Positions 1,757 through 52,595 of a DNA stretch of 64,000 nucleotides are shown one piece after another. The notes under the pieces were generated by a model. That model saw only the letters and a list, made by a program, of their open reading frames with translations. It had not been told where the DNA came from and searched no databases. The translations under genes and the position numbers were made by a program. Source of the DNA: an uncultured virus (IMG/VR IMGVR_UViG_3300037067_005627) (lineage: Duplodnaviria > Heunggongvirae > Uroviricota > Caudoviricetes); the IMG/VR virus record IMGVR_UViG_3300037067_005627. One strand, 5' to 3'. How positions within the stretch are numbered: the stretch's first letter is position 1; each line of letters opens with the position of its first letter.

Positions 1757-2109
1757 GTAAGTTTATTGATGAAGTTAGAGCGAGGATTACTGGCAAGCGT
1801 GCTGTTGCGAATTATGAACCATTAAATGTCATTAGAAGTCGCGAATATGACTTCACCCGTTCCTATGATGTTTATAGAATAGGCGTCGAGTGGAAACGAG
1901 ACATCATATTAAATGATTCATTAATGAAGTCACTTGCCCCTCAAGGGGCGCTTCAGCTAGCTCTCAAAAATGTGGTTCGAGAGCTAAGATTGGCTATATA
2001 TGAAGACTTTGAACTCAAACTTCTTGGCTTACAGAGAGCTGTTATACAAGGAGATTCAAGCAAAGTTCTCGATTTGGTTTCCGAATTACTTGTGGAGGTA
2101 AGGGCATGA
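1753..2109 (+). CDS. Hypothetical protein
   Basis: ATGA overlaps at both ends. Confidence 0.7.
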   Translation: MSKFIDEVRARITGKRAVANYEPLNVIRSREYDFTRSYDVYRIGVEWKRDIILNDSLMKSLAPQGALQLALKNVVRELRLAIYEDFELKLLGLQRAVIQGDSSKVLDLVSELLVEVRA

Positions 2110-3038
2110 TTACTTCGATTAAGCTTACCAATTTTAAAGGGTATAAAGATACAACCGAAATCTTTTTCGACGAAGGAGTTAATTCTATCGTAGGTTCAAC
2201 AGACGCAGGAAAGTCAGCATTAATTTCAGCTATCTTTTGGGTGGTCTTCAACCGCCCTCTTGGTGATGAAATGATGCGAAATCCTGACGACACTACAACT
2301 GTTACGCTTCGAGTGAAAAACGGCAGCAAAGTGTATGATGTTAGCAGACGAAGGGGCAAAGGGAATAATATTTACAAAGTAAAACCACTAGGAGAGCCGT
2401 CAGTGTATTATTCAGGTTTTGGAAGTAGTGTGCCAGACGAAATTTCAGCCATCTTCAACCTTTCCGAGATAAACTTTCAAGGGCAACATGATGCGCCTTT
2501 CATGGTATCCTCTTCCCCAAGAGAAGCTGGAGCATTGCTCAACGAAGTTACCGATCTCAGTAGCATAGACAGGACTATCTCTAACATCAATCGAATAGCG
2601 CGAAACGAAAAAGAAGCGGTAGAAGATTTGAAAGTGAAGAGGGGAGAACTTCAAAAGCAAGTAGTTTCCTTTGATTGGATTGATGAATATGAAAAGGGGT
2701 TAGAAACTGTCCAGGAAATATATCAAAAGACGAATGAAACGGTATCAGAAATCGCAGTTCTCAAGGTTTACATAGACAACCTTGAAACCTTGAACTCAAC
2801 AAGAGAGGAAGTCTTAGCCAAAGTGGCATTGAAAGAAGATTTGGCATACCTTCTTTCTCTGGATGCAGAGATAGCGCAAGATCGTGATGAAATCTTTAGA
2901 CTCAAAAAATTCCTTAACTCCGTTTCGGACTTGAGAGAAAAACAATTCAAGGTCGCCAATGCACTTTGCCAACTCAAAAAAGACATGTTCGATTCTATTG
3001 GAGAAGTGTGCCCTCTATGTGGCCAGGAGATATTATAA
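2106..3038 (+). CDS. Rad50/SbcC-like ATPase, N-terminal half ending at the zinc hook
   Basis: IKLTNFKG, Walker A GSTDAGKS, Q-loop FQGQ, coiled coil, terminal CPLCG. Confidence 0.9.
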   Translation: MITSIKLTNFKGYKDTTEIFFDEGVNSIVGSTDAGKSALISAIFWVVFNRPLGDEMMRNPDDTTTVTLRVKNGSKVYDVSRRRGKGNNIYKVKPLGEPSVYYSGFGSSVPDEISAIFNLSEINFQGQHDAPFMVSSSPREAGALLNEVTDLSSIDRTISNINRIARNEKEAVEDLKVKRGELQKQVVSFDWIDEYEKGLETVQEIYQKTNETVSEIAVLKVYIDNLETLNSTREEVLAKVALKEDLAYLLSLDAEIAQDRDEIFRLKKFLNSVSDLREKQFKVANALCQLKKDMFDSIGEVCPLCGQEIL

Positions 3039-3988
3039 TGAACCCCACTGCGATATTGACGGCGGACTGGCACTTGACAACGAGAACCCCCCGTTGTCGA
3101 ACGGATAAAAGCTATCTCGGCACTCAACTTTCCAAAGTCGAGCATATTCTTGCCATCTCTCAATCCTTCGGGAACATTCCTATCTTGCATGCTGGGGATT
3201 TAGGGGATAAACCAGAGTGGCCAAATTGGTTGCTACGAGAATTTATAATGCTTAAGAAGGGACATGAAGCGACAAAGATAATAGTCGTAACAGGACAACA
3301 TGATCTCCCTCAACATAGGGCACTAGAGTGGGCAAAGACCGGGGTAGGCGTTCTCGATAGTGCAGGGGTTATCAAGGTAATATATCGGTCATCATCGAGT
3401 ATTTCTCTGAGCTATAGAAAAAACATGGGAGAATCTTGGGGGACAGCCCAAATTAATTTTGCCCCTTTTGGGACAAAGGTTCCTCCATTCAAGAAGGCGG
3501 ATGTGGATACTTACGTTTTAATTACACACAAATTAATCACCCCTAACAAAGATTCTATAATAGGCGGGGAATATTATCAAGACTTTATAGAGGCGCATCC
3601 AGAGTATGGCCTAATCCTGGTCGGCGATAATCACAAAACCTTTGTAAAAAAAGTACGCCATACTACCCTTGTGAGCCCTGGTTCCCTAATGCGAATGTCT
3701 GCTGATCAAATAGATCATCGCCCCTGCGTCTTCTTATGGTATGCTGAAACGAATAAAGTCGAGTCTTGCTATATCCCCATTATAGAAGGGCATGTTTCAA
3801 GAGATCACATAGATGAGGCTAACGCAAAGGAGCATCGAGTTAATGCCTTTGTAGAAAAGGTCAAAGGGGAAGGGAGGACAGCCCATTCTTTTGAGGCTAA
3901 TTTAGAGAGGAAGATGGAGGGCATCCCTGATCTAAAAGAAGGGACTCAAAAGAAAGTGTGGGAGGCATTCAATGGCGACAGCGAATGA
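3038..3988 (+). CDS. Mre11/SbcD-like metallophosphoesterase nuclease
   Basis: ADWH, AGDL, GQHD, TH, GDNH and PGS motifs; ATG at 3038 overlaps the upstream TAA. Confidence 0.9.
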   Translation: MNPTAILTADWHLTTRTPRCRTDKSYLGTQLSKVEHILAISQSFGNIPILHAGDLGDKPEWPNWLLREFIMLKKGHEATKIIVVTGQHDLPQHRALEWAKTGVGVLDSAGVIKVIYRSSSSISLSYRKNMGESWGTAQINFAPFGTKVPPFKKADVDTYVLITHKLITPNKDSIIGGEYYQDFIEAHPEYGLILVGDNHKTFVKKVRHTTLVSPGSLMRMSADQIDHRPCVFLWYAETNKVESCYIPIIEGHVSRDHIDEANAKEHRVNAFVEKVKGEGRTAHSFEANLERKMEGIPDLKEGTQKKVWEAFNGDSE

Positions 3989-4205
3989 GTTGTTAAAAGC
4001 AAAAAAGGAAATAGAAGAGGCTGAGAGACAACTATCATATGTTGAAGGCCAACTCATGTTAGTCCATAAACAACATGGGAGAATGACCCTGGAAGAAGCG
4101 CAACGAGAATTAAAAGTGAAAGAATCTTTGCTTAGCATTAGGGAAGCCGCCCTTAATAGAGAATGGAATAAGTTCGCAGAGAAGTTCTATGATAACCAAG
4201 ATTAA
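3972..4205 (+). CDS. Short coiled-coil protein, probable middle piece of the split Rad50
   Basis: E/K/L heptad-rich 77 aa between Mre11 and the Rad50 C-half. Confidence 0.6.
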   Translation: MATANELLKAKKEIEEAERQLSYVEGQLMLVHKQHGRMTLEEAQRELKVKESLLSIREAALNREWNKFAEKFYDNQD

Positions 4206-4809
4206 AGGAGCTCAAGAGAAACTTCAGAAAGCTAAATGGCACCTTTTCCACGCCAAGGGAGAACTGTCTCAGATCGAAAAGAAAATGAGGGCTACCAACA
4301 GGGAGATTCATTTCACAGAAGAGGCGCAAACCTTAATTAAAAAGGTGGCAATAGAAACTCAAGAACAACTGCGCTATCATCTTTCAGAATTAGTTTCTAC
4401 TGCGATGGCAACTATTCTCCCTGAAGATATTGCCTATACATTTCAGATTAAGTTCCTAGATAGGCGAGGGGCGGTAGAGTGTGAGTTCTCTTTAAAGAGG
4501 GGAGAGGCAGAGAGGGGGGTGTTTTCTGCCGGTGGTGGTGTGGTTGATATAGTAGCCACAGCACTAAGATTTTCAGTCTTGATGTTAAGCAAAAATCGGA
4601 GGGTCATTATCCTTGATGAGCCATTCCGAAACCTTAGTAGAAATTGGCATTCTCTCGCATCCGAATTTATAAAGGAGGTCTCTACAGAACTAGGCATTCA
4701 AGTTATATTAGTAACCCATAGCAACGAACTTATTGAAGCCAGCGAAAGTGTTATTGAAGTTTCATCTGACGGGACACAAAGCTGGATAGAGGATAGCAAT
4801 GCAAATTAA
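4189..4809 (+). CDS. Rad50/SbcC-like ATPase, C-terminal half
   Basis: Signature-like SAGGG, Walker B ILDEPF, H-loop LVTH. Confidence 0.9.
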   Translation: MITKIKGAQEKLQKAKWHLFHAKGELSQIEKKMRATNREIHFTEEAQTLIKKVAIETQEQLRYHLSELVSTAMATILPEDIAYTFQIKFLDRRGAVECEFSLKRGEAERGVFSAGGGVVDIVATALRFSVLMLSKNRRVIILDEPFRNLSRNWHSLASEFIKEVSTELGIQVILVTHSNELIEASESVIEVSSDGTQSWIEDSNAN

Positions 4810-5047
4810 TCAATTACGAAAGCCTGATTCTGTAACTAATGCGAAAGCTAAATTAGAAGAATTTCAACAGGCCATCCAACCGATTATCGAAGCTATGATT
4901 ACTATAGAAATATTTGGCCTCCGTAAGATAACACTATATGAAGACGGGCATATAGAAAAGGAATACACTACACAGGCGCAAGAGATGTTGCAGAAATGTA
5001 AGGATATTATAGACAGTTTTCGTGAAGCGTTCTTTAACGGGGAATAA
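4799..5047 (+). CDS. Hypothetical protein
   Basis: ORF with RBS, overlapping the upstream gene. Confidence 0.6.
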   Translation: MQINQLRKPDSVTNAKAKLEEFQQAIQPIIEAMITIEIFGLRKITLYEDGHIEKEYTTQAQEMLQKCKDIIDSFREAFFNGE

Positions 5048-5058
5048 CAACCAAACGT

Positions 5059-5184
5059 GGGGCAAGTGGCGGAACTGGTAGACGCAAGAGGTTTATAGGG
5101 GATGTCGTAGCTGACTGTAAACCTTTTCAGCAAACAAGAGCTACGTAATGCTGAGTCCCGGTTCGAGTCCGGGCTTGCCCCACA
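5059..5184 (+). ncRNA. tRNA-like RNA with Leu-type D-arm and canonical T-arm but no normal anticodon loop
   Basis: Acceptor GGGGCAAG/CTTGCCCC; D-arm TGGCGGAACTGGTAGACGCA; T-arm CCCGG-TTCGAGT-CCGGG; 12-bp and 6-bp arms, each with a 16-nt loop. Confidence 0.8.
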
Positions 5185-5196
5185 AAAGGAGACGTG

Positions 5197-5373
5197 ATGA
5201 AAAAAGGATTCATAGAATGTCTTACTGATTTTATGGGTGATTCTGAGGGGCAAACCAAGGAAGAGGTAGTAAACGAACTGGAAGAAATGGGGATTGATAC
5301 AGATAAACTCATGGAATTGGTTGACAAACTATTGGCTATAAAAAGGAGGCGTGATGCAAAACATACCGATTGA
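5197..5373 (+). CDS. Small acidic hypothetical protein (58 aa, not in the ORF track)
   Basis: AGGAG RBS; MKKGFIECLTDF...KRRRDAKHTD. Confidence 0.6.
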   Translation: MKKGFIECLTDFMGDSEGQTKEEVVNELEEMGIDTDKLMELVDKLLAIKRRRDAKHTD

Positions 5374-6297: not shown

Positions 6298-9200
6298 CTA
6301 CTTTGCCACTTTCTCTGATGCCCTTTTATATGCAGCCTTTACTATTACGTTTTGTTTATCTGCCAAAGTATTAAGGCGATTAAGTTTTTCATCAGAGGTT
6401 AATGAAGGCGATGACCATATCAGTCTCATGTTAGCCCTAATCTTTCGAAGCTGTTCTTTAGTTGATGTCATTTGTTTGCCTGCTGCAATCAATGGTCTGT
6501 TGTCTTCAGCTAATTCAAGAGCAGCCTTAGGATCGCCAAGATTCCTGTAGTAGTGCATCGTCTTGGCGATCTTGTCGTATTCGTCAAAGATTTCATAGAA
6601 CTTCGTTTGCTGTTTTATATAGCGAGGATGTTCTGCTTCTTTTAAAAATGTTCCTATAAGCGGGTAGTCGTCAATCTTCATAGTCGGTCTAGCAGGAAAG
6701 TCAAAGAATGTACGAGTCAAGACATCTGTACCACCAATAATTGCTATCCCTATAGTTGAAAAGTACCCGTCAATCAGAGCTTTAATTCTATTCGGGCTCA
6801 TCCCTAATTGTTTGCCAATCCCCTGCAATGTCTCAGAAGTCCAGGGGTCATGTTGCTCACCAGGAATCAACCCTTCCAAATGCGCTCCAACTATTGGCCT
6901 TCCAGTAAAGAAGGTTTTATTCGCCCATTGCTCGTAAATAGGTTTGATAGTCTGTGGCAAATCCATAGCGAACACATCTCTAATGCCTTTCCACATTACA
7001 TTCCAAATATGTTTCCCTTCATCATTGCCACAAATAACATTCGCTATAGCTTCAGGGATACTGCTAAAGAACACCCCTATCTCAAAAGGCTTGGGCATCC
7101 TGACATGGGTATCCCCAATCCACCAGTGATAGTACGCCATCCTGTCCCACTCTTCTAGTTCTTTGTAGCGATCATCATCTTTGAAAGCCCCCCACAACAT
7201 AAGGGAAGCAAGAGTAAGGAGGGTTCCCCTAACGCCAAAGTTCACCATTGTCTCTGCTTGTGTGGCTGTATTGAACAATTTATAATTCCCCTGCGTCCTT
7301 GCATTAAGGAAGGGGATAATATGAATAAGAAGCTGTACTGCCTTTGAACTTCCATGCCTACTAAAATCAAGGTAGTCCCTAACTGCAAATGCCGCATCTA
7401 ATGTGCTCATTCCATTCTTGGTTTTATTAGCAAACCCTTGTACCCTTACTGCATTTTCAGAAGCTGTTCCAACCTTTTCCCACCAATCTAATGCTTTCCT
7501 GAATGTGCTAAGTACGATTGCCCCTTTCTCTTTACGGAGGATTTTTTCAATCCGTTTTGTTGCTATTTCCATGTCTTGAGAATGGATGTAACTCGTTCCG
7601 AAAGCGCCACCAGCAGCCTTTAACCTAACCATATTCGGATCATTATTCCACGCTTTTCTAAACCCTTTGAGTGCATCTCTTAACGCAAATAAGGGGAAAA
7701 GGGGTTCTAATAATGAGGATGGCGGACGTCCAAAATCTTTGTCAATTAACGAAGTATGAATAGCATCTCTTATCATATTGTTGACTTTAAACGCAGGCCC
7801 AAAAGTTGCGCTATAAGTCAACAACCTTTTTGGGGTAGAAAAGAACTTCGCTGCTACTCCATTAAGGGCATTAAACTCGACACCCCCAAGAGCTTCAAAT
7901 AAGGGTTCACTATCCACTTTGAAATAAATAGGCTTCCCATCCCTCTGAAATACAAGCACATTCTTTTGATCTCTCTTGGTAACATAGACCATCCTTGAGT
8001 TAGAACCTGTGCCTCGTTTGAATACGTGGAGGTCTTTAAACCCGACTTCCTCTACAAGCCCCATCCCCTTTGCTTTCGCCTCTTCAAAACAAGTTTCCCT
8101 TGCCACGTTCTCTATGCTCGCAGTAATCAGGTGGTTCCAGTTCTTAAGCATATTTTCAAGGGGATCGCCAACTTTCATCTCTGCTCCTTCAAGTCTTCTA
8201 ATCTGTGCCGAGATGAAACGCCTGCTCTTGTTAGGAGAAAGCATAAACTTATTCTTAGCTATAGCATTTTCCATAATTCTATAGAACGGGATATAGAAAT
8301 CTTGTTCCCATGACACCCTTGCATCATGGTTAATCAACCCTGCCTTTTCTGCTATGTCGAGGGTGTTCTTATTCCATTCGTCAAGTTCCTTAGCCTTCGC
8401 AACCCATTCAGATTTATCCTTATCCCCTGCCCACTTATAAATCTCGTTACGCACTGTCTCAGTGAGCCATCTCTCTTTAGGAACAACAACCATCTGTCCA
8501 GTATTAGGGTCGCGCTTTCTAATCGTCTGAGTTTCTAACGCCTCCGCCCGTCTAGCCATAGTCCAATACAGGAACTTGTTTGCGTCTTTCCCCATTGCTT
8601 CTAACCAGGGGATAAATCCCTGCCCTCTAGTGTCACAAGTAAGGACTTTGCCATCCCACTTTAATTTGCCATCTGTCAACAACGTATCAAAAACAACGGG
8701 GGCGCCATTCTGAAGGGACAGGACTTTATAAGATTCCAGCCCTATCATCTGTTTAACAGGGTCAAGTCTGTCAAACACTTTCCTCCTGATGTATGCCCGG
8801 AACTCTTTCGACTTAACGCTATCCCATGCTTTGGAAACAGCCTCTCCCATAGTTGTCTGGTGTTTGCCGATATATGTGGAGATGGTATCAGGAACCTTGC
8901 CAAAAGCAAATCTAGCAAACCCTTGAAAGATAGCTGTCTCCCTCATTTTGTTATTAATAGTAATCGAGAACTTTCTTTTTACCTCATCTTCAAGTGTTTT
9001 GACATATCTGCGAGCTTCTTCTAAAGCGTCCTCTTTTGTCTCGTTACCACGCATTGAATTTCGCCCCCAACGAAATACATCGTCAACTTTTCCGTCAACT
9101 ATCACTTCTATGCTGTTATCAGTCTCTTGGAATTCTATCTTTGGCTTTGAACTTTCTCTTTCTACTGTCGCCCCAAACTGTTTTGCAAACTTCTCAAGAG

Positions 9201-12200
9201 CGCCAGGAATCTTTTCCCCATAGGAAAACTCCATCCCCTCCTTGCGAGGGAGGAGGGCGCCAGACTCAGGTGACTTTTGCATCTTGTTCCAAAGCTGATC
9301 AACCTTGCGTGCCACATAAGCATCTGTGTGGTGGCTCTTGACAATACGCATACGGCGCATAAGGTCTTCGACATCTTGCTTAGTTGAAACTTCTGTTGTG
9401 TCGTATTGTTGGAACTTCCCTTCCCTTGCTAATCTATCAGCTTCTTGTTGCAGATCGAATCCCCTTGCGTATCCGCCAACTTGGGTAGTGTATGAAAGTT
9501 GCCAAGCCTTCTTTCCGACTTTCTCGTCCCTGGCATATTCGATAGCGTTCTTGATAGCCTGTTCATAAGAATCGTTTTCAAGGATGACTTGCCCTTGATC
9601 TATAAGATTATAAACGGGTTTGCCTACCTCCCATTTCGCCCCTGTTGCAGCCATCAGATTATCAGCTAGTCTGGAAAAATGGCCTGTTAATTTGCTTGGT
9701 GGCCCTTCATATCCATTATATAAATCTTGGATAATATTCTGTATCCCTCTTACATTAAGGCTTTCCCATTCTTGCATTATCTTCACGATTTCGTCTGCCG
9801 TAGCGTACTCAGATTTTAATGTCAGCATCCTCTTTAATGTATTCGCCGTTTGCATTTTCAAATTATAGTTGTCAATTAAATCGTTTAAATCTTTTGTGGA
9901 ATTAGCAAGCAAAATCTTAGCGACCCTTATCTTTGTCCCCTTGTTCATTGGAGGGACAATTGCCTTTGATGGCATCTCCGTTTCTTTTATCTCTATGCCT
10001 AACTCTTTGAGATAACTCTCAACTTCCCCTCTCTTGTATTTGCCAAGGTTGGTTCGCTCATTAAAATCTTCAAGAGATACGGCTGGAATTTTCTTCCAAG
10101 CATACCTATCAGACCCCCAATGCTTAATCAGTTCATCAGGGTGAGGGAATGTAACCTTATCATAGCCTTTCTCTGCTGCATAACGAATCACTTTCTGTAT
10201 TCCGAGTTTCACCCAATTATGAGCGAATGGGAAGTCAGGAGTGCCTTGCTTCTTTCCTAAATCCTGCGGCCAATCCCCTTGCAATTCAAGCACATTGAGT
10301 TCCCTAGGCCCTTCCCCTTTGCTTTCATCTATCAAGACATGGAAGGCAACATCATTGATAGTCTCCCCTTCAGCATAATCTCCGCCCCAATGTGGGCTAT
10401 GGTAGTCTTTCCTTCTGCCCATGTTAGGAAGGTGGATAACTAACTCCCTATAATTGTGGGCTTCAGAGAAGTAGCCTTCATACCTTGCCCATTCTTTTGT
10501 TGCATCATTTTCTAGTTGGAATGTATTCCCGAATATTTCTCTAAGACTTTCCCAGGAAGCTTTAGACGCTATTGTTATTCTTTCTTCGTCAGTTTTAGCT
10601 TGTTTTAGTCTAACCTGATTATCGGGGGATAAGTCAACTTCATCAAAATTCTCCCAAAAAATAGTCGCTTCTTCAGGGCTCAAACGCCCCACTACTTTCC
10701 TAATAGCGTTTATCCGATCCTCCTGACTTGCCAAATCTTTCCCCAACAACTCAACTTCCCCCATCTCTGTCTCTTCTGTGGCTATTGCAACATAGGCCCT
10801 GAGTTGTTCCCGATCTATCTTATCCCCTTGCTTATTATCTTCAAGCCATTGATTCAAACCTGTCCATGCTATCTCTTCCCTTGTTACCCCTTTCCTGGCA
10901 AGGTAGTTAGGGATAGATTGAACCTTGCTCGGCATATCGGGGAAGTTAACAGCTTTCTGTAATACGCTATAAGTGAAAGGGACCGGCTCTTTTCCCTGAG
11001 CAAAACGTACATTCCCCCTTACTTTTCCTTGAGCCTCTCCCCCCTTGACGTATTCCAGTGATTTTGCAAGTATCGAATCTAAATCCCCTTCAGTCATTTT
11101 AACGTCAAACCCAAACTTGGAAAGGACTTCCCGCAAAAATTGACGTACTCTATCAAGTAGGGTTTTCTCTTTCTGTGTGAGGTCAAATCTTGTAGCCAAA
11201 TCTGCTATAAATTCTTCCGATGCTGTACGTCTATGCTCTGCGTTATTATTGTCGAACTCCCCTTTGAAATAGCGTTCGACAATATCCCCCATCGCTTTAC
11301 TCTTGCCAAAGGACATCCATACCCTGTCAAGGATAGAGTTAAGAGCATTGCCGAATGCGCCATGCAATCCATAGTGCCCAACTATTTCATGGAGATACCA
11401 TAGTTGTGCTTCGCCTACACTCGTCATATTGTTGGCAAAGATATAAACAATAGGCCCTTGTCTGGTTTCTAAGAAGACGCCTTTAGGATTGCGTTCTTGC
11501 CAATCAGGATTCTCCTTATCCATCAATGCCCTATGTTCTTCAGGGATTTGGCTGGCATCCGTGATAACAGTTGCGATAGGCGCATTCTTAAATACTTGCG
11601 CTATCTTTTGAAACGATGTCTTGATAGCGGTTGCAACGCCTGTCTGTTCAGGAGGTGTCTTGACGATCTCCCTGACAAGCGGTTCCATGCGCCTAAGATT
11701 CTCGATCACTTGTTGTTGGGATTCTGTCCCTTTAGAATCCTTGACCGTCCTAAGTATTTCGTTCTGAATAGCATCCTGCATCACAAGGGGGCCATGTTCT
11801 TTAACCCCTTGCTTTATATGTTCGAGGACAGTATCATCGCCGTTAGCTAGCATCTTGCCTGCTTCTGCCCTGGTGATTCCGTTGATTCTGCCTTCTGGTT
11901 TAATAGATGGCAGGCGACGTTGTTCTTCGGGGGAGAGTCCAAACTTCGCTTTTCCTTCTACAATCTTCGCCCTCTTCTCATCAAGAAAGCTTGGCCTACC
12001 AAGTTGATCAACTGCATTGCAGCCCACTGTTTCTGTCTTTCCAGTATCCCAAACGACTTCATATCGAATACGAGTTGCAATATCAGGACTTGTCTTATTT
12101 ATAATTCTTCGGCTTATGGTTCCTGTATGGTATTCATTAGGCCCAATCTTGTACCTTCCTTGTACTCTATCCCCAACAATTAAATCTTGTTGCCTTTTCC

Positions 12201-14334
12201 ACTTAATTTCTGCACCCTTTACTCCGACTTGCTTTTTTTCATAATTTATCAAAGACGGAATTTGGGTTGCCTTTGCAACTGTTTCCACCGTCATCCCCTG
12301 TCTATCAATAGAGGCATTCTCAAAAAACTTTGTAAGTCTTTCCTGCTCTGCGGGAGTAAACTGTTGAGCGTTTTCTATAATCACAGGAATTGCAGAGCTT
12401 CCTCCAGATGTGTGTATCATATCCGCGATGGCACGATAACGAAAATGCTGAGCGCGCAAGTCTAATTCTTTTCCAAAACCAAACTTAACAGCCCCAGGGG
12501 CTTTCTTCCACACGGTTGCGTTGTTCTGGCTTACTTGTTCAGGGATGCCCTCTGGTTTCCTCCCCTTCCCTGCCACTTTCTCAAACCCTAACTTCTCTGC
12601 TATCTTATCCATCCCCTTGGAAGTGGAAGCAACCCATATCTCTTTATCGGGATAAGCGTCCACAGTATCTCTAACTGCCTTTAAGCCAAAGCCTGCACCC
12701 CTCTCCCCCTTCTCCACATACACATCATGAAGGTAAAACTTGTCAGGCGTGATCTCCCCTTCTATCCACCCTTTGCCGCCAGGGAGAGTAACTTTGAGAG
12801 GCCCCTCTTCTACTCTCGCAGGTTTCTCAACGGCAATCTCTTCCCCTCTAGCACCCATGTATTCCCTGTCAGAAGTTTCGGGGACATTCTTAGCTCTTAT
12901 CGCAGCCCCTTCCTCTACCCCCGGAACACCGCCTACCCTTCTTATCGCATTGTCTAACCAACTCTCTTCTTGGGAAGGTTTGACGACATACTTGTCTTCA
13001 GGGTTGATAGGTTGCCCCTCGATCACCTTGGGTGATTCTGCCTTGTCTATCCCTGCCTCTACATCTTTCGTCATCCTCTCTTTGAAAGCATCATAAACTT
13101 TCTTCTGCTCTTCAGAAAGGCCAGTGAGTTCTTCTGTGTGTCTGGCAATCATAGAGGCGAGACGATCGGATGGTTCCCTTCCATTACTAATAGCGGAGTC
13201 CCAGGACATCTGTTCGAATCTCAGATTTCTCCAAAGGTCGGCTATCCTCTTTTGCCTTGCTTGATAATCAGGGTCACTCTTCAGAGTTTCGTTAGTGTCT
13301 ATCTCTGCCTGAACTCTGGCTATCTCCCTCTTCTCCCCTGCAAGGTAACGGCCAAATCTGGTTTCAAAACTGCCAGAGGGGACAGTTGTGGCAGTAGGCA
13401 AAGGTTCTTCAGGAGCCCCTTCTTCGGGAGATGGAGCAATAGGGGCCTCACTGATAGTTGTAGGAACTTCGGTAGGTGCGGCCTTTGCTTTCGCTCTAGC
13501 GGCCATTGTCTCCGTCGTTAATCCCATACCCCCAAAAAAGACGCCAGAAAGGGCACCTAAGGCTGTATCATGTTTGGCAATCTCCCACATTTCTTTGGAA
13601 TGTTTTTCATCTGTCATCCTCTGAGAAAATGCGCCCGCAGTTTCATCAGGGGGTCTTGCTGCCCACTGTTCAGCAAGGTAGGACATAACCCCTTGCATGC
13701 CTTCCTGGCCACCTTCGACCGCCCCTGTTTTAAGTAAGGTTGTTGCCGTCCCTGCTATTGCATGGGAAACTCCACTCGCAGTCCCAATCGCTGTAAGAAG
13801 ATTAGCTAACGCTTTCCCTCTTACGGTACGGAAAATGAACTCAGTCCCTAAGAAATCGAGAGAAGCAACTATAGGGCCAGCAGTCCAAGAGACTGCCTTT
13901 GCGGTATTTTCGTCTGCCCCTAATTCTAGAGCCTTACTTTCTATTTCCTCTTGTTGAAGATTAGAATACAAAGACATGGTTAAAAGAGGGCCAACGTAAG
14001 GGATATACCTCATAGCCAATCCCGATGCAGTATGCCCAAGACTGCCTATCCATTTTCCCAGGAATGGTTCCGTCTTGTCCTCTACAGCTTTTGCCCAAGC
14101 GTTAATATCAGGGTCATTCTTCTTTGCGTTCTCCCAAAAACCACGCCACCCTTTACCCGGTTTCTCAAATAGGGCAACGCCTGGAGATGCGAAGACATCA
14201 AAGACAGCAGACTTGGCAGCTCCAAATGGGTGGCCGATGTCCTTGTATTGCGCCACAGATTCCTTCGGTTTAGGGACGCCTATCTCTGTCTCAGGAAGTT
14301 CTAATTCACCTGCTAGTTGGTCAAAATCAACCAT
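6298..14334 (-). CDS. Large polyvalent internal-virion (ejection) protein with GNAT, zincin and LPD38-like domains
   Basis: GNAT motif (LHDVYVEKGERGAGFG...EKLGF) near 12570-12790; HEIVGH...EEFIA near 11200-11400; C-terminal DFSRHG..IPFLNA..QG, PKPFEIG and NKTFFTGRPI typical of LPD38; last gene of the virion operon. Confidence 0.8.
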   Translation of the reverse strand: MVDFDQLAGELELPETEIGVPKPKESVAQYKDIGHPFGAAKSAVFDVFASPGVALFEKPGKGWRGFWENAKKNDPDINAWAKAVEDKTEPFLGKWIGSLGHTASGLAMRYIPYVGPLLTMSLYSNLQQEEIESKALELGADENTAKAVSWTAGPIVASLDFLGTEFIFRTVRGKALANLLTAIGTASGVSHAIAGTATTLLKTGAVEGGQEGMQGVMSYLAEQWAARPPDETAGAFSQRMTDEKHSKEMWEIAKHDTALGALSGVFFGGMGLTTETMAARAKAKAAPTEVPTTISEAPIAPSPEEGAPEEPLPTATTVPSGSFETRFGRYLAGEKREIARVQAEIDTNETLKSDPDYQARQKRIADLWRNLRFEQMSWDSAISNGREPSDRLASMIARHTEELTGLSEEQKKVYDAFKERMTKDVEAGIDKAESPKVIEGQPINPEDKYVVKPSQEESWLDNAIRRVGGVPGVEEGAAIRAKNVPETSDREYMGARGEEIAVEKPARVEEGPLKVTLPGGKGWIEGEITPDKFYLHDVYVEKGERGAGFGLKAVRDTVDAYPDKEIWVASTSKGMDKIAEKLGFEKVAGKGRKPEGIPEQVSQNNATVWKKAPGAVKFGFGKELDLRAQHFRYRAIADMIHTSGGSSAIPVIIENAQQFTPAEQERLTKFFENASIDRQGMTVETVAKATQIPSLINYEKKQVGVKGAEIKWKRQQDLIVGDRVQGRYKIGPNEYHTGTISRRIINKTSPDIATRIRYEVVWDTGKTETVGCNAVDQLGRPSFLDEKRAKIVEGKAKFGLSPEEQRRLPSIKPEGRINGITRAEAGKMLANGDDTVLEHIKQGVKEHGPLVMQDAIQNEILRTVKDSKGTESQQQVIENLRRMEPLVREIVKTPPEQTGVATAIKTSFQKIAQVFKNAPIATVITDASQIPEEHRALMDKENPDWQERNPKGVFLETRQGPIVYIFANNMTSVGEAQLWYLHEIVGHYGLHGAFGNALNSILDRVWMSFGKSKAMGDIVERYFKGEFDNNNAEHRRTASEEFIADLATRFDLTQKEKTLLDRVRQFLREVLSKFGFDVKMTEGDLDSILAKSLEYVKGGEAQGKVRGNVRFAQGKEPVPFTYSVLQKAVNFPDMPSKVQSIPNYLARKGVTREEIAWTGLNQWLEDNKQGDKIDREQLRAYVAIATEETEMGEVELLGKDLASQEDRINAIRKVVGRLSPEEATIFWENFDEVDLSPDNQVRLKQAKTDEERITIASKASWESLREIFGNTFQLENDATKEWARYEGYFSEAHNYRELVIHLPNMGRRKDYHSPHWGGDYAEGETINDVAFHVLIDESKGEGPRELNVLELQGDWPQDLGKKQGTPDFPFAHNWVKLGIQKVIRYAAEKGYDKVTFPHPDELIKHWGSDRYAWKKIPAVSLEDFNERTNLGKYKRGEVESYLKELGIEIKETEMPSKAIVPPMNKGTKIRVAKILLANSTKDLNDLIDNYNLKMQTANTLKRMLTLKSEYATADEIVKIMQEWESLNVRGIQNIIQDLYNGYEGPPSKLTGHFSRLADNLMAATGAKWEVGKPVYNLIDQGQVILENDSYEQAIKNAIEYARDEKVGKKAWQLSYTTQVGGYARGFDLQQEADRLAREGKFQQYDTTEVSTKQDVEDLMRRMRIVKSHHTDAYVARKVDQLWNKMQKSPESGALLPRKEGMEFSYGEKIPGALEKFAKQFGATVERESSKPKIEFQETDNSIEVIVDGKVDDVFRWGRNSMRGNETKEDALEEARRYVKTLEDEVKRKFSITINNKMRETAIFQGFARFAFGKVPDTISTYIGKHQTTMGEAVSKAWDSVKSKEFRAYIRRKVFDRLDPVKQMIGLESYKVLSLQNGAPVVFDTLLTDGKLKWDGKVLTCDTRGQGFIPWLEAMGKDANKFLYWTMARRAEALETQTIRKRDPNTGQMVVVPKERWLTETVRNEIYKWAGDKDKSEWVAKAKELDEWNKNTLDIAEKAGLINHDARVSWEQDFYIPFYRIMENAIAKNKFMLSPNKSRRFISAQIRRLEGAEMKVGDPLENMLKNWNHLITASIENVARETCFEEAKAKGMGLVEEVGFKDLHVFKRGTGSNSRMVYVTKRDQKNVLVFQRDGKPIYFKVDSEPLFEALGGVEFNALNGVAAKFFSTPKRLLTYSATFGPAFKVNNMIRDAIHTSLIDKDFGRPPSSLLEPLFPLFALRDALKGFRKAWNNDPNMVRLKAAGGAFGTSYIHSQDMEIATKRIEKILRKEKGAIVLSTFRKALDWWEKVGTASENAVRVQGFANKTKNGMSTLDAAFAVRDYLDFSRHGSSKAVQLLIHIIPFLNARTQGNYKLFNTATQAETMVNFGVRGTLLTLASLMLWGAFKDDDRYKELEEWDRMAYYHWWIGDTHVRMPKPFEIGVFFSSIPEAIANVICGNDEGKHIWNVMWKGIRDVFAMDLPQTIKPIYEQWANKTFFTGRPIVGAHLEGLIPGEQHDPWTSETLQGIGKQLGMSPNRIKALIDGYFSTIGIAIIGGTDVLTRTFFDFPARPTMKIDDYPLIGTFLKEAEHPRYIKQQTKFYEIFDEYDKIAKTMHYYRNLGDPKAALELAEDNRPLIAAGKQMTSTKEQLRKIRANMRLIWSSPSLTSDEKLNRLNTLADKQNVIVKAAYKRASEKVAK

Positions 14335-51770: not shown

Positions 51771-52595
51771 GTGATCACCAATACTCCAATACAGAAGGTT
51801 GGCCTTGGCGGCAAAACAATCTATGTCAAGAGAGAAGACATGGCCTGTGAGTCGCCAGGGCCACCTTTTTCTAAAGTAAGGGGTCTTATCCCTTATCTCC
51901 GCTCTATCCCCCAAGTCAAACATATAGCTTATATGGAAACGTCTATCTCTATGGCAGGATGGGGGGTGTCATATTCGGCGGGGAAAGTGGATAAGGAGGC
52001 AACAATCTTTTATCCCCGATACAAAGCTGGCCTTAAAGATAATCAAGCATTCCAAATGGAGAAATGGAAAGAGTTTGGAGCTAACATTATCCCTATCAAA
52101 AGACCTAACATGCAAAACATTAACTTCCTTATGGCAAAACATCTTTTGGAAGAGATTGACCCAAAGGCATTACTTCTCCCTTTAGGGTTGTCCTTCCCTC
52201 AAACAGTGACAGCGGTAGCAAGGGAATTGTTGCGAACTCACAAGTCCTTTTTGACGGGCTCCATTGTTTGTTCTGTCGGAAGTGGAACTATGATGGCAGG
52301 AATAATAAGGGGGTTATCGCATACCTCTTGCCGCCCTGACCTTTACGGAGTTCTGGCTGCAAAGAAAGGGGTACTCGGAATATACACTAAGATCGAACGG
52401 ATGGCTAATTGTTTCCATACTTACAACCTCCGCATTGTCAGCCATGGATATGAATACACCCAAGCTGAAGAATGCGCCGTTCCATTCCCTTGCAACAAGT
52501 ATTACGACAGGAAGGCTTGGAAGTGGATGATTGATCACATTGGGCAACTAAAGGAGCCAATTCTTTTCTGGAACATAGGGGGAGATGGCAAATAA
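51771..52595 (+). CDS. PLP-dependent fold-type II enzyme (ACC deaminase/D-cysteine desulfhydrase-like)
   Basis: YVKRED...SK.R, SVGSGT..AG, YYD.KAW and FWNIG. Confidence 0.85.
   Translation: MITNTPIQKVGLGGKTIYVKREDMACESPGPPFSKVRGLIPYLRSIPQVKHIAYMETSISMAGWGVSYSAGKVDKEATIFYPRYKAGLKDNQAFQMEKWKEFGANIIPIKRPNMQNINFLMAKHLLEEIDPKALLLPLGLSFPQTVTAVARELLRTHKSFLTGSIVCSVGSGTMMAGIIRGLSHTSCRPDLYGVLAAKKGVLGIYTKIERMANCFHTYNLRIVSHGYEYTQAEECAVPFPCNKYYDRKAWKWMIDHIGQLKEPILFWNIGGDGK

Follow-up and report, generated by a model that had tools for sequence, protein, structure and literature searches.

A leucine-tRNA-shaped, anticodon-free RNA with two potentially kissing arms in an uncultured tailed phage

Background

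What might be the role of an RNA that combines the acceptor stem, D-arm and T-arm of a leucine tRNA with no anticodon? This question is raised by positions 5059 to 5184 of a 64,000-nucleotide stretch of DNA from an uncultured virus (IMG/VR record IMGVR_UViG_3300037067_005627), hereafter called the window. A preliminary description of this locus viewed it as a non-decoding tRNA mimic whose two enlarged arms can form a kissing loop. The explanations that compete for it are a working RNA acting in trans, a processing signal, a decaying tRNA, a chargeable non-ribosomal tRNA and an intron-containing precursor.

Architecture of the predicted RNA

The predicted RNA consists of the following elements, with the evidence for each in parentheses:

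5059..5182, + strand: whole predicted RNA, 124 nt before CCA addition (Rfam tRNA model, fold z)
5059..5066, + strand: 5' strand of the acceptor, 8 bp, with U at -1 (5058) (pairing probability 1.0; register as in related frames)
5069..5085, + strand: Leu-type D-arm with A14, A15, G18G19 and A20a (blastn to annotated phage tRNA-Leu over 5060-5095)
5087..5126, + strand: enlarged arm in the anticodon position, 12-bp stem and 16-nt loop (pairing probability 0.97)
5106..5112, + strand: candidate kissing heptamer 1, CGTAGCT, on the 3' side of loop 1 (sequence complementarity)
5127..5154, + strand: enlarged variable arm, 6-bp stem and 16-nt loop (pairing probability 0.86)
5139..5145, + strand: candidate kissing heptamer 2, AGCTACG, on the 3' side of loop 2 (sequence complementarity)
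5156..5173, + strand: U48 (partner of A15) and T-arm with a 5-bp stem and UUCGAGU loop (T-arm itself 5157-5173)
5174..5184, + strand: 3' strand of the acceptor, discriminator A5182, then CA (CCA not encoded)

The acceptor, Leu-type D-arm and TTCGA T-arm, earlier described as intact, are all recovered as helices at these coordinates, as are the two new arms: the 12-bp stem (strands 5087-5098/5115-5126) comprises 10 Watson-Crick and 2 G-U pairs, the variable stem pairs 5127-5132 with 5149-5154, and each carries its 16-nt loop. The 7-nt anticodon loop is absent, and inspection of the sequence confirms that no CCA is encoded. As for the acceptor, the helix stands but its register is revised: it is best read as 8 bp (5059-5066/5174-5181) with A73 and U-1, instead of 7 bp, which results in a 13-bp acceptor/T branch. 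A 7-bp register would make the discriminator a C, and the 8-bp register is preferred because U-1 and A73 are typical of related frames (77 and 87, respectively, of 114 clusters among the matches listed). The 8-bp register itself is encountered in three of 114 enlarged frames, including that of the window, and in none of 54 ordinary viral Leu-type tRNAs among the matches listed.

The tRNA-Leu elbow is complete (A14, A15-U48, G18G19, A20a and the T-loop), and the canonical elbow identity set, as listed in the available text of PMC9976931, is found in the window RNA. Between the frame parts lies a middle of 71 nt, in which no spacer separates the two enlarged stems; these could stack coaxially. 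The stretch 5110-5131 within this middle resembles a Tyr(GUA) anticodon arm into which 5 nt, the 3' strand of the other stem, are inserted, and its CUGUAAA loop is wholly masked by 5092-5098; a Leu/Tyr chimeric origin is possible.

The Rfam tRNA model recovered 5060-5181 with 38.5 bits (E 1.2e-6) in a 501-nt local search, and the fold z of the RNA is -3.3. Searches of the whole window with Rfam missed the RNA, default ARAGORN reported 0 tRNA genes for the window, and these checks, proposed in the preliminary description, returned no Rfam family beyond the generic tRNA model. The best blastn matches of the RNA are phage tRNA-Leu genes. In the predicted ensemble the D and T stems have a pairing probability of just 0.01, compared to 1.0 for the acceptor, 0.97 for the long arm and 0.86 for the short arm; this low value tells little because ordinary viral Leu-type tRNAs misfold alike in the model (9/54 among the matches listed).

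Complementary loops and their precedents

The exact complementarity of CGTAGCT (5106-5112) and AGCTACG (5139-5145) is confirmed, and both heptamers lie on the 3' side of equal-sized 16-nt loops. A loop-loop complement of at least 7 bp is seen in 0.33% of 200,000 loop shuffles and in 0.86% of 100,000 pairs of 16-mers from the window, both tests having been made after the feature was picked. Pairing of loop 1 with the variable stem was considered and rejected, as the alternative pairings are 11-15 kcal/mol worse. Within the middle there is also a repeat, 5144-5154 resembling 5106-5114, and both heptamers have palindromic parts; the loop complement could have arisen from these through duplication. 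We consider it probable that the two loops pair, thereby locking the anticodon-side domain and removing any exposed anticodon-like loop. Should the arms instead be coaxially stacked, each loop would find its partner in another molecule, giving rise to dimers or rings.

Loop pairing is plausible, and T4 RNA C and a further viral Leu frame (locus L531) provide independent precedents. T4 rnaC (species 1 RNA; L128:1409-1547) is annotated in GenBank as a small stable RNA; the available text of PMC9697503 describes RNA C as late-expressed, confirmed on Northern blots and of unknown function, and that of PMC2330249 as a product of the tRNA-cluster transcript. In an alignment of 14 of 15 sequences (L128 and L483-L496, excluding one whose core is identical), 6 bp connect the long-arm tip to the loop of the arm that precedes the T stem in 14/14 phages (84/84 cells). 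Five of these pairs are invariant; the sixth is A-U except in three Marfavirus records, where it is G-C, which amounts to one event. The tip sequence persists where the long arm has been rewritten, and the loop sequences are invariant while the stems covary. No account of this tip-to-tip pair was found in the literature covered, most subscription and older papers falling outside that coverage. The precedent is limited because the compensatory change is a single event and because RNA C is without a D-arm. The second precedent, L531:84-213, is an independent Leu frame on a viral contig with a long, bulged arm, and 6 bp can form between the tip of this arm and the variable loop; the frame has no Rfam match, and its record contains three ordinary tRNAs about 18 kb from the enlarged frame.

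The kissing loop of the preliminary description thus stands as a 7-bp complement with precedents in T4 RNA C and L531, but no diverged homologue was found from which its covariation could be read.

Searches for homologues

No diverged homologue of the middle was recovered by blastn from 50,697 phage records, which returned only 36-nt matches to tRNA-Leu. Searches of viral contigs with frame patterns yielded eight loci, all belonging to another single family, and 0 and 1 loci in further scans, the single locus being a permuted RNA. Among 11 pattern loci from metagenome contigs, one (L132) is an identical copy of the window RNA. For the covariation check through homologues suggested earlier, the viral, metagenome and genome contig searches gave only this identical copy. 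No cluster of enlarged frames shares the window middle, the longest common stretch being 10 nt among the matches listed.

A distant SbcD homologue was found at one locus, with no frame, and an enlarged frame lies beside none of 80 loci with distant sbcC homologues. A tRNA-model match is present in 11 of 40 records of distantly related phages; two of the 40 contain short-variable-loop tRNA frames with enlarged anticodon arms (L349:1501-1615 on the - strand and L355:1501-1597 on the + strand). A separate observation concerns L362:240-420 (- strand), a circularly permuted tRNA-like RNA with a T-arm, a closed acceptor and a D-arm in YrlA-like order, after which further T-arm elements follow.

A class of enlarged leucine frames

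A search pattern comprising a Leu D-loop, 58-90 bases and a T-loop retrieved at least 118 viral loci, then 8 and 76 more viral loci, 11 from metagenomes and 114 from genomes; these counts under-sample the class. Of 272 full-frame matches 74 were dropped because their acceptor or T stem was disrupted, they enclosed parts of other tRNAs or they included N, and the remaining 198 frames form 139 clusters by shared 11-mers among the matches listed. Enlarged anticodon-free Leu frames are widespread in viral contigs. Among the matches listed, U48, which the patterns left free, is kept in 137 of the 139 clusters, A73 in 104 and an encoded CCA in eight, while a canonical anticodon arm is kept in just three of the first 114 clusters. 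The middles of these 114 clusters have a mean fold z of -1.09, with 25 below -2 and 19 above 0, again among the matches listed. As far as can be judged from sequence, these frames appear to be under selection: their middles are unrelated, yet U48 and mostly A73 are kept.

A control scan supplied 54 ordinary viral tRNAs of the Leu type, with which 61 viral enlarged clusters were compared, all among the matches listed. Encoded CCA is rarer in the enlarged frames (2/61 versus 18/54), and A51-U63, which is a weak EF-Tu pair according to Table 2 in the accessible part of PMC3239215, is commoner (52/61 versus 26/54). As 27 of the 61 share one acceptor sequence, the class statistics are not independent; in frames with other acceptor starts A51-U63 is present in 23 of 31 (both counts among the matches listed). 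The T stem of the window RNA, at +0.3 kcal/mol for EF-Tu, is not weak and is unremarkable.

Loop-loop complements of at least 6 bp occur in three of 139 frames, against 0.15 expected from 60 dinucleotide shuffles per frame; at least 5 bp is reached in 4 frames (1.38 expected) and at least 4 bp in 13 (9.35 expected), among the matches listed. When the window is set aside, two of 138 frames reach 6 bp (Poisson 0.01; among the matches listed). In a cruder loop-shuffle test, p fell below 0.05 for five of 29 testable clusters among the matches listed, and most of these have weak pairing energies. A general rule of kissing across the class was rejected on the count of 3/139 among the matches listed; predicted kissing appears to recur across the enlarged frames, but to be rare. 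In L215 the loop complement is an AU-rich pair between hairpins other than the long and variable arms.

Several families were observed in the course of this survey. A frame with the acceptor AGTCAGG and T stem ACAGG (L001-L118, L363-L482) carries unrelated middles of about 30-90 nt; among the matches listed, it accounts for 27 of the 61 viral enlarged clusters and for most of the 12 non-canonical normal-length frames in the control scan. It looks like a natural tRNA scaffold that carries a hypervariable insert. A 17-locus family (L047, L120-L127, L131, L133-L140) shows the opposite pattern of a near-invariant 77-nt middle and a varying acceptor stem. Leu-type frames L183, L188, L197, L199, L223, L229 and L234, several of which derive from Solirubrobacterales bins, combine a very long variable arm with a short arm that resembles an anticodon arm and reads UUC or UUU. 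Planctomycete tRNA-Leu frames (L156, L158, L195, L211, L246) have a conserved 26-nt hairpin between U33 and a CAA anticodon; three of the five genomes also have ordinary CAA-loop matches and one has a UAA-loop match, and the insert is possibly a mini-intron or a mimic.

No description of the class of enlarged anticodon-free Leu frames was found in the literature, of which most subscription and older papers fell outside coverage. Five candidate viral RNAs that overlap tRNAs are described in the available text of PMC10690425, whose supplement, with 10,006 viral RNA models, may include members of the class.

Phage and gene neighborhood

The window is probably a nearly whole tailed-phage genome, because a protein encoded beside the RNA gene also sits on a 64,172-base contig. 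Its genes, as identified with Pfam and PHROG, include those for a portal, major head protein, DNA polymerase, clamp, clamp loader, primase, helicases, ThyX, a UvsX/RecA-like recombinase, SbcC-like and SbcD-like proteins, an LPD38 protein and a lysozyme. A protein 99% identical to the SbcC-like protein bears a Syntrophorhabdaceae bin name, which is a weak hint of a bacterial host. Three features of the gene complement may be recorded in passing. The SbcC protein is seemingly split (2106-4809), with N- and C-terminal genes flanking SbcD and a 77-aa ORF. A PLP-dependent enzyme gene (51771-52595; Pfam PALP, PHROG 'threonine dehydratase') lies in the replication module near DNA methyltransferase and ThyX genes and may have a role in DNA base modification. 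A 2678-aa protein encoded at 6298-14334 on the - strand has the LPD38 domain at its C-terminus.

The RNA gene lies near the end of a + strand run of recombination genes, and is flanked by two features:

4799..5047, + strand: 82-aa ORF with no assigned function; its stop codon is 11 nt upstream of the RNA (no Pfam family above cut-off)
5187..5373, + strand: AGGAG, resembling a ribosome-binding site, and a 58-aa orphan ORF directly 3' of the RNA

The AGGAG lies 5 nt beyond the RNA. A protein search with the 58-aa ORF returned only its own sequence and no relatives of similar length, and none of the ORFs neighboring the RNA has a Pfam family above cut-off. Promoter-like sites near the RNA are no more frequent than expected by chance (3 versus 4.5 expected), and the scan found no terminator-like site at the locus. 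It is the only tRNA-like gene found in the approximately 64-kb phage, D-loop and T-loop motifs co-occurring at this locus alone. TTA makes up 18% of the 1644 Leu codons of the phage, a share that is uninformative about a need for tRNA-Leu(UAA). No 12-mer match that could represent an antisense target was found within the phage, 11- and 10-mer matches being at chance level. Among the sequencing runs listed none is of RNA, and the two that contain every word of the sequence are possible sources of this DNA and hence no independent support. When four runs with a small share of the sequence were aligned with the window, the contig of one relative matched at 4200-5051 and then from 5353, with 712 letters between the aligned blocks compared to 301 in the window. 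Among the matches listed there is no piece over the RNA, but depth remains in 5138-5204, so that its absence is not implied.

Functional interpretation

We favor a reading in which the gene would be transcribed together with the recombination genes on the + strand, the RNA would be excised by host RNase P and the host enzymes that process tRNA 3' ends, and the host would add CCA. That it is a working RNA made in this way we regard as quite likely. The loops would then kiss, locking the anticodon-side domain so that no anticodon-like loop is exposed, and the stable RNA would work in trans, either as a decoy or as a ligand, on host proteins that recognize the elbow or the 3' end of tRNAs; the likeliest targets would be tRNA-attacking anti-phage toxins or tRNA-sensing proteins. 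Candidate roles named in the preliminary description include an uncleavable decoy and a ligand for T-box or stringent-response sensors. The 13-bp acceptor/T branch together with the missing anticodon would exclude it from decoding. The whole chain, leading to a host-processed, non-decoding, tRNA-shaped putative decoy or ligand, is a tentative proposal that we place slightly below an even chance. It gains support because stable non-decoding precedents exist in T5 RNA1/RNA2 and T4 RNA C, and is weakened because no diverged homologue of the window middle was found.

The gene context might alternatively be explained by a cis-acting processing signal, wherein cutting by RNase P and RNase Z separates the recombination genes from the small ORFs that follow on the polycistronic mRNA, with the excised RNA as a by-product. 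The tight placement within the + strand run, where a stop codon lies 11 nt upstream and AGGAG 5 nt downstream, as well as the chance-level promoter-like sites and lack of a terminator-like site in the scan, are consistent with this, and U-1, the elbow and the missing CCA fit too, as enlarged frames rarely encode CCA. However, the elbow and acceptor would suffice for processing, which leaves the two complementary loops unexplained, and the invariance of the T4 RNA C and T5 RNA1 loops while their stems covary points to a job for the RNA itself. We hold this explanation to be unlikely.

Another possibility is that the locus is a tRNA-Leu, or a Leu/Tyr chimera, in decay: local duplication would have enlarged its middle and produced the loop complement incidentally. 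The internal repeat and palindromes described above might reflect such growth, as might what we take to be a resemblance of 5110-5121 followed by 5127-5131 to a Tyr(GUA) anticodon arm interrupted by 5 nt, and decay would also agree with the lack of a diverged homologue in the viral and metagenome contig scans. Yet all frame pairs and tertiary positions are intact, both new arms are uninterrupted helices, the alternative pairings are far less stable, the heptamers occupy the same side of equal loops, and the same design appears to recur under selection elsewhere. Decay is thus quite unlikely, and the earlier view of a non-decoding mimic rather than simple decay is supported by the intact frame and the uninterrupted arms.

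Could the RNA be charged and serve outside the ribosome, as a leucine donor for a transfer reaction or as a drain on LeuRS? According to the available text of PMC9976931, E. coli LeuRS can do without the anticodon and variable arms but needs A73, A15-U48, G18G19, A20a and D/T contacts; all the required elements are present in the 8-bp register. In this register, however, the 8-bp acceptor shifts A73 by one pair from the elbow, whereas the canonical 12-bp branch is what EF-Tu recognizes (available text of PMC5389517). The 7-bp register gives C73, which abolished leucylation of a minimal E. coli tRNA-Leu in the same portion of PMC9976931. Leucylation is doubtful because A73 comes only with the 13-bp branch, and no aminoacyl-transferase family was detected among the 86 ORFs (76 searched by Pfam and 10 by PHROG). 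The role of aminoacyl donor entertained in the preliminary description is weakened by the choice between a 13-bp branch and C73, and we deem it very unlikely.

Splicing of an intron-containing precursor to tRNA-Leu(UAA) or tRNA-Tyr(GUA) is very improbable: removal of 23 nt (5096-5118), previously put forward as restoring Leu(UAA), leaves a 5-bp stem and 7-nt loop, the Leu(UAA) register alone has 4/4 central bulge-helix-bulge pairs, and a conserved insert of 26 nt is known in the anticodon loop of planctomycete tRNA-Leu frames, but this removal is one of eight equivalent registers giving GUA, UUA, UAA or UAU, of which none has the full bulge-helix-bulge (outer helix 0/3 for UAA), and the product would keep the 8-bp acceptor and a 28-nt variable arm. 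At 23 nt the segment is far below the size of self-splicing introns, and too short for self-splicing. Splicing endonuclease, RNA ligase and CCA-adding families were not detected among the 86 ORFs (76 by Pfam, 10 by PHROG only). When ARAGORN was run with introns and a lowered threshold it made a 'Tyr' call with a 40-nt intron, whose anticodon is non-Tyr; the call was discounted as meaningless. In sum, splicing and leucine charging of the RNA are both unlikely.

Returning to the putative decoy, a bolder extension, to which we attach a low probability, is that phages have repeatedly and independently made anticodon-free kissing-arm RNAs from tRNAs as RNA-only counter-defense sponges that anticodon nucleases cannot cut. 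Such RNAs would tie up host tRNA-attacking or tRNA-sensing proteins, and, if they form dimers or rings, would display several elbows and 3' ends. Assembly by intermolecular loop pairing is known from the phi29 pRNA. Were the sponge reading true, T4 RNA C would be a laboratory-ready member of these RNAs. Should the decoy interpretation hold, counter-defense would gain an RNA-only strategy; an intermolecular pair would mean a natural RNA assembly based on tRNA. The window RNA, T4 RNA C and T5 RNA1 all escape standard tRNA and Rfam scans, and well over 100 unrelated enlarged leucine frames are present in viral contigs and genomes among the matches listed, few of them with a tip-to-tip pair.

Comparison with known systems

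An ordinary tRNA-Leu (Rfam RF00005) resembles the window RNA in its D-arm, A15-U48, T-arm, A73 and U-1, but has a 5-bp anticodon stem with a 7-nt loop instead of a 12-bp stem with a 16-nt loop, and a canonical 7/5 acceptor-T branch with A73 in place of 8/5 with A73 or 7/5 with C73. Among non-decoding tRNA mimics, YrlA (a bacterial Y RNA) is circularly permuted and linked to Ro60, whereas the window RNA has the normal arm order; Rfam searches of the window gave no YrlA match and the phage ORFs no Ro60 match. Like the window RNA, YrlA is a non-decoding tRNA mimic that is also found in phages (PMC4201824). A lengthened acceptor stem and a long variable arm are shared with tRNA-Sec (8/5) and allo-tRNAs (8/4, 9/3), which, as far as described in the accessible text of PMC5389517, nevertheless keep the anticodon loop and have a Sec-type long D stem with a tetraloop; the allo-tRNAs have a 12-bp branch with G73 or U73, as opposed to the Leu D-arm and 8/5 branch of the window RNA.

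The closest parallels in plan are the stable RNAs of phages T5 and T4. T5 rna1 and rna2 are annotated in GenBank AY543070 as 'tRNA-like stable RNA with unknown functions', and neither these nor T4 rnaC reaches the Rfam gathering score. The T5 RNAs are of a kind defined by annotation, for which there is no Rfam model; its phage-encoded tRNA frame, enlarged arms and missing anticodon are all found in the window RNA. T5 RNA1 follows the same plan, with a Leu-type D-arm, T-arm, enlarged arm in the anticodon position, 6-bp variable stem and no anticodon, while T5 RNA2 shares the 8-bp acceptor, the A discriminator and the enlarged anticodon-position arm. RNA1 is matched in 487 phage records; an alignment of 11 sequences (of 13, two near-duplicates having been left out) shows compensatory changes at 11 of its 38 predicted pairs, and its loops are near invariant while the stems covary, complementing each other over about 3 bp by eye. 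The T5 RNAs sit in a tRNA cluster, whereas the window RNA is solitary. The middle of RNA1 is not alignable with that of the window RNA, the longest shared stretch being 12 nt at a different position; a stretch of this length shared with RNA1 variants was seen in 4 of 3000 shuffles, in a post hoc test. A search with the window RNA returned no T5-like records, and the conserved loops and alignable middle of RNA1 are absent from it.

T4 RNA C likewise combines an acceptor helix, a T-arm, and a long and a second arm with complementary tips, over 6 bp compared to 7 bp in the window RNA, where the pairing is predicted from sequence. It differs in having no D-arm, an imperfect 7-bp acceptor, far longer arms and 6-nt loops that pair completely, while the window RNA has a full D-arm and loops unlike the UUGACG/CGUCAA type of the RNA C family; no sequence similarity between the two was noted. 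Taken together, these comparisons suggest that the window RNA corresponds to T5 RNA1 and T4 RNA C in plan, while belonging to neither sequence family.
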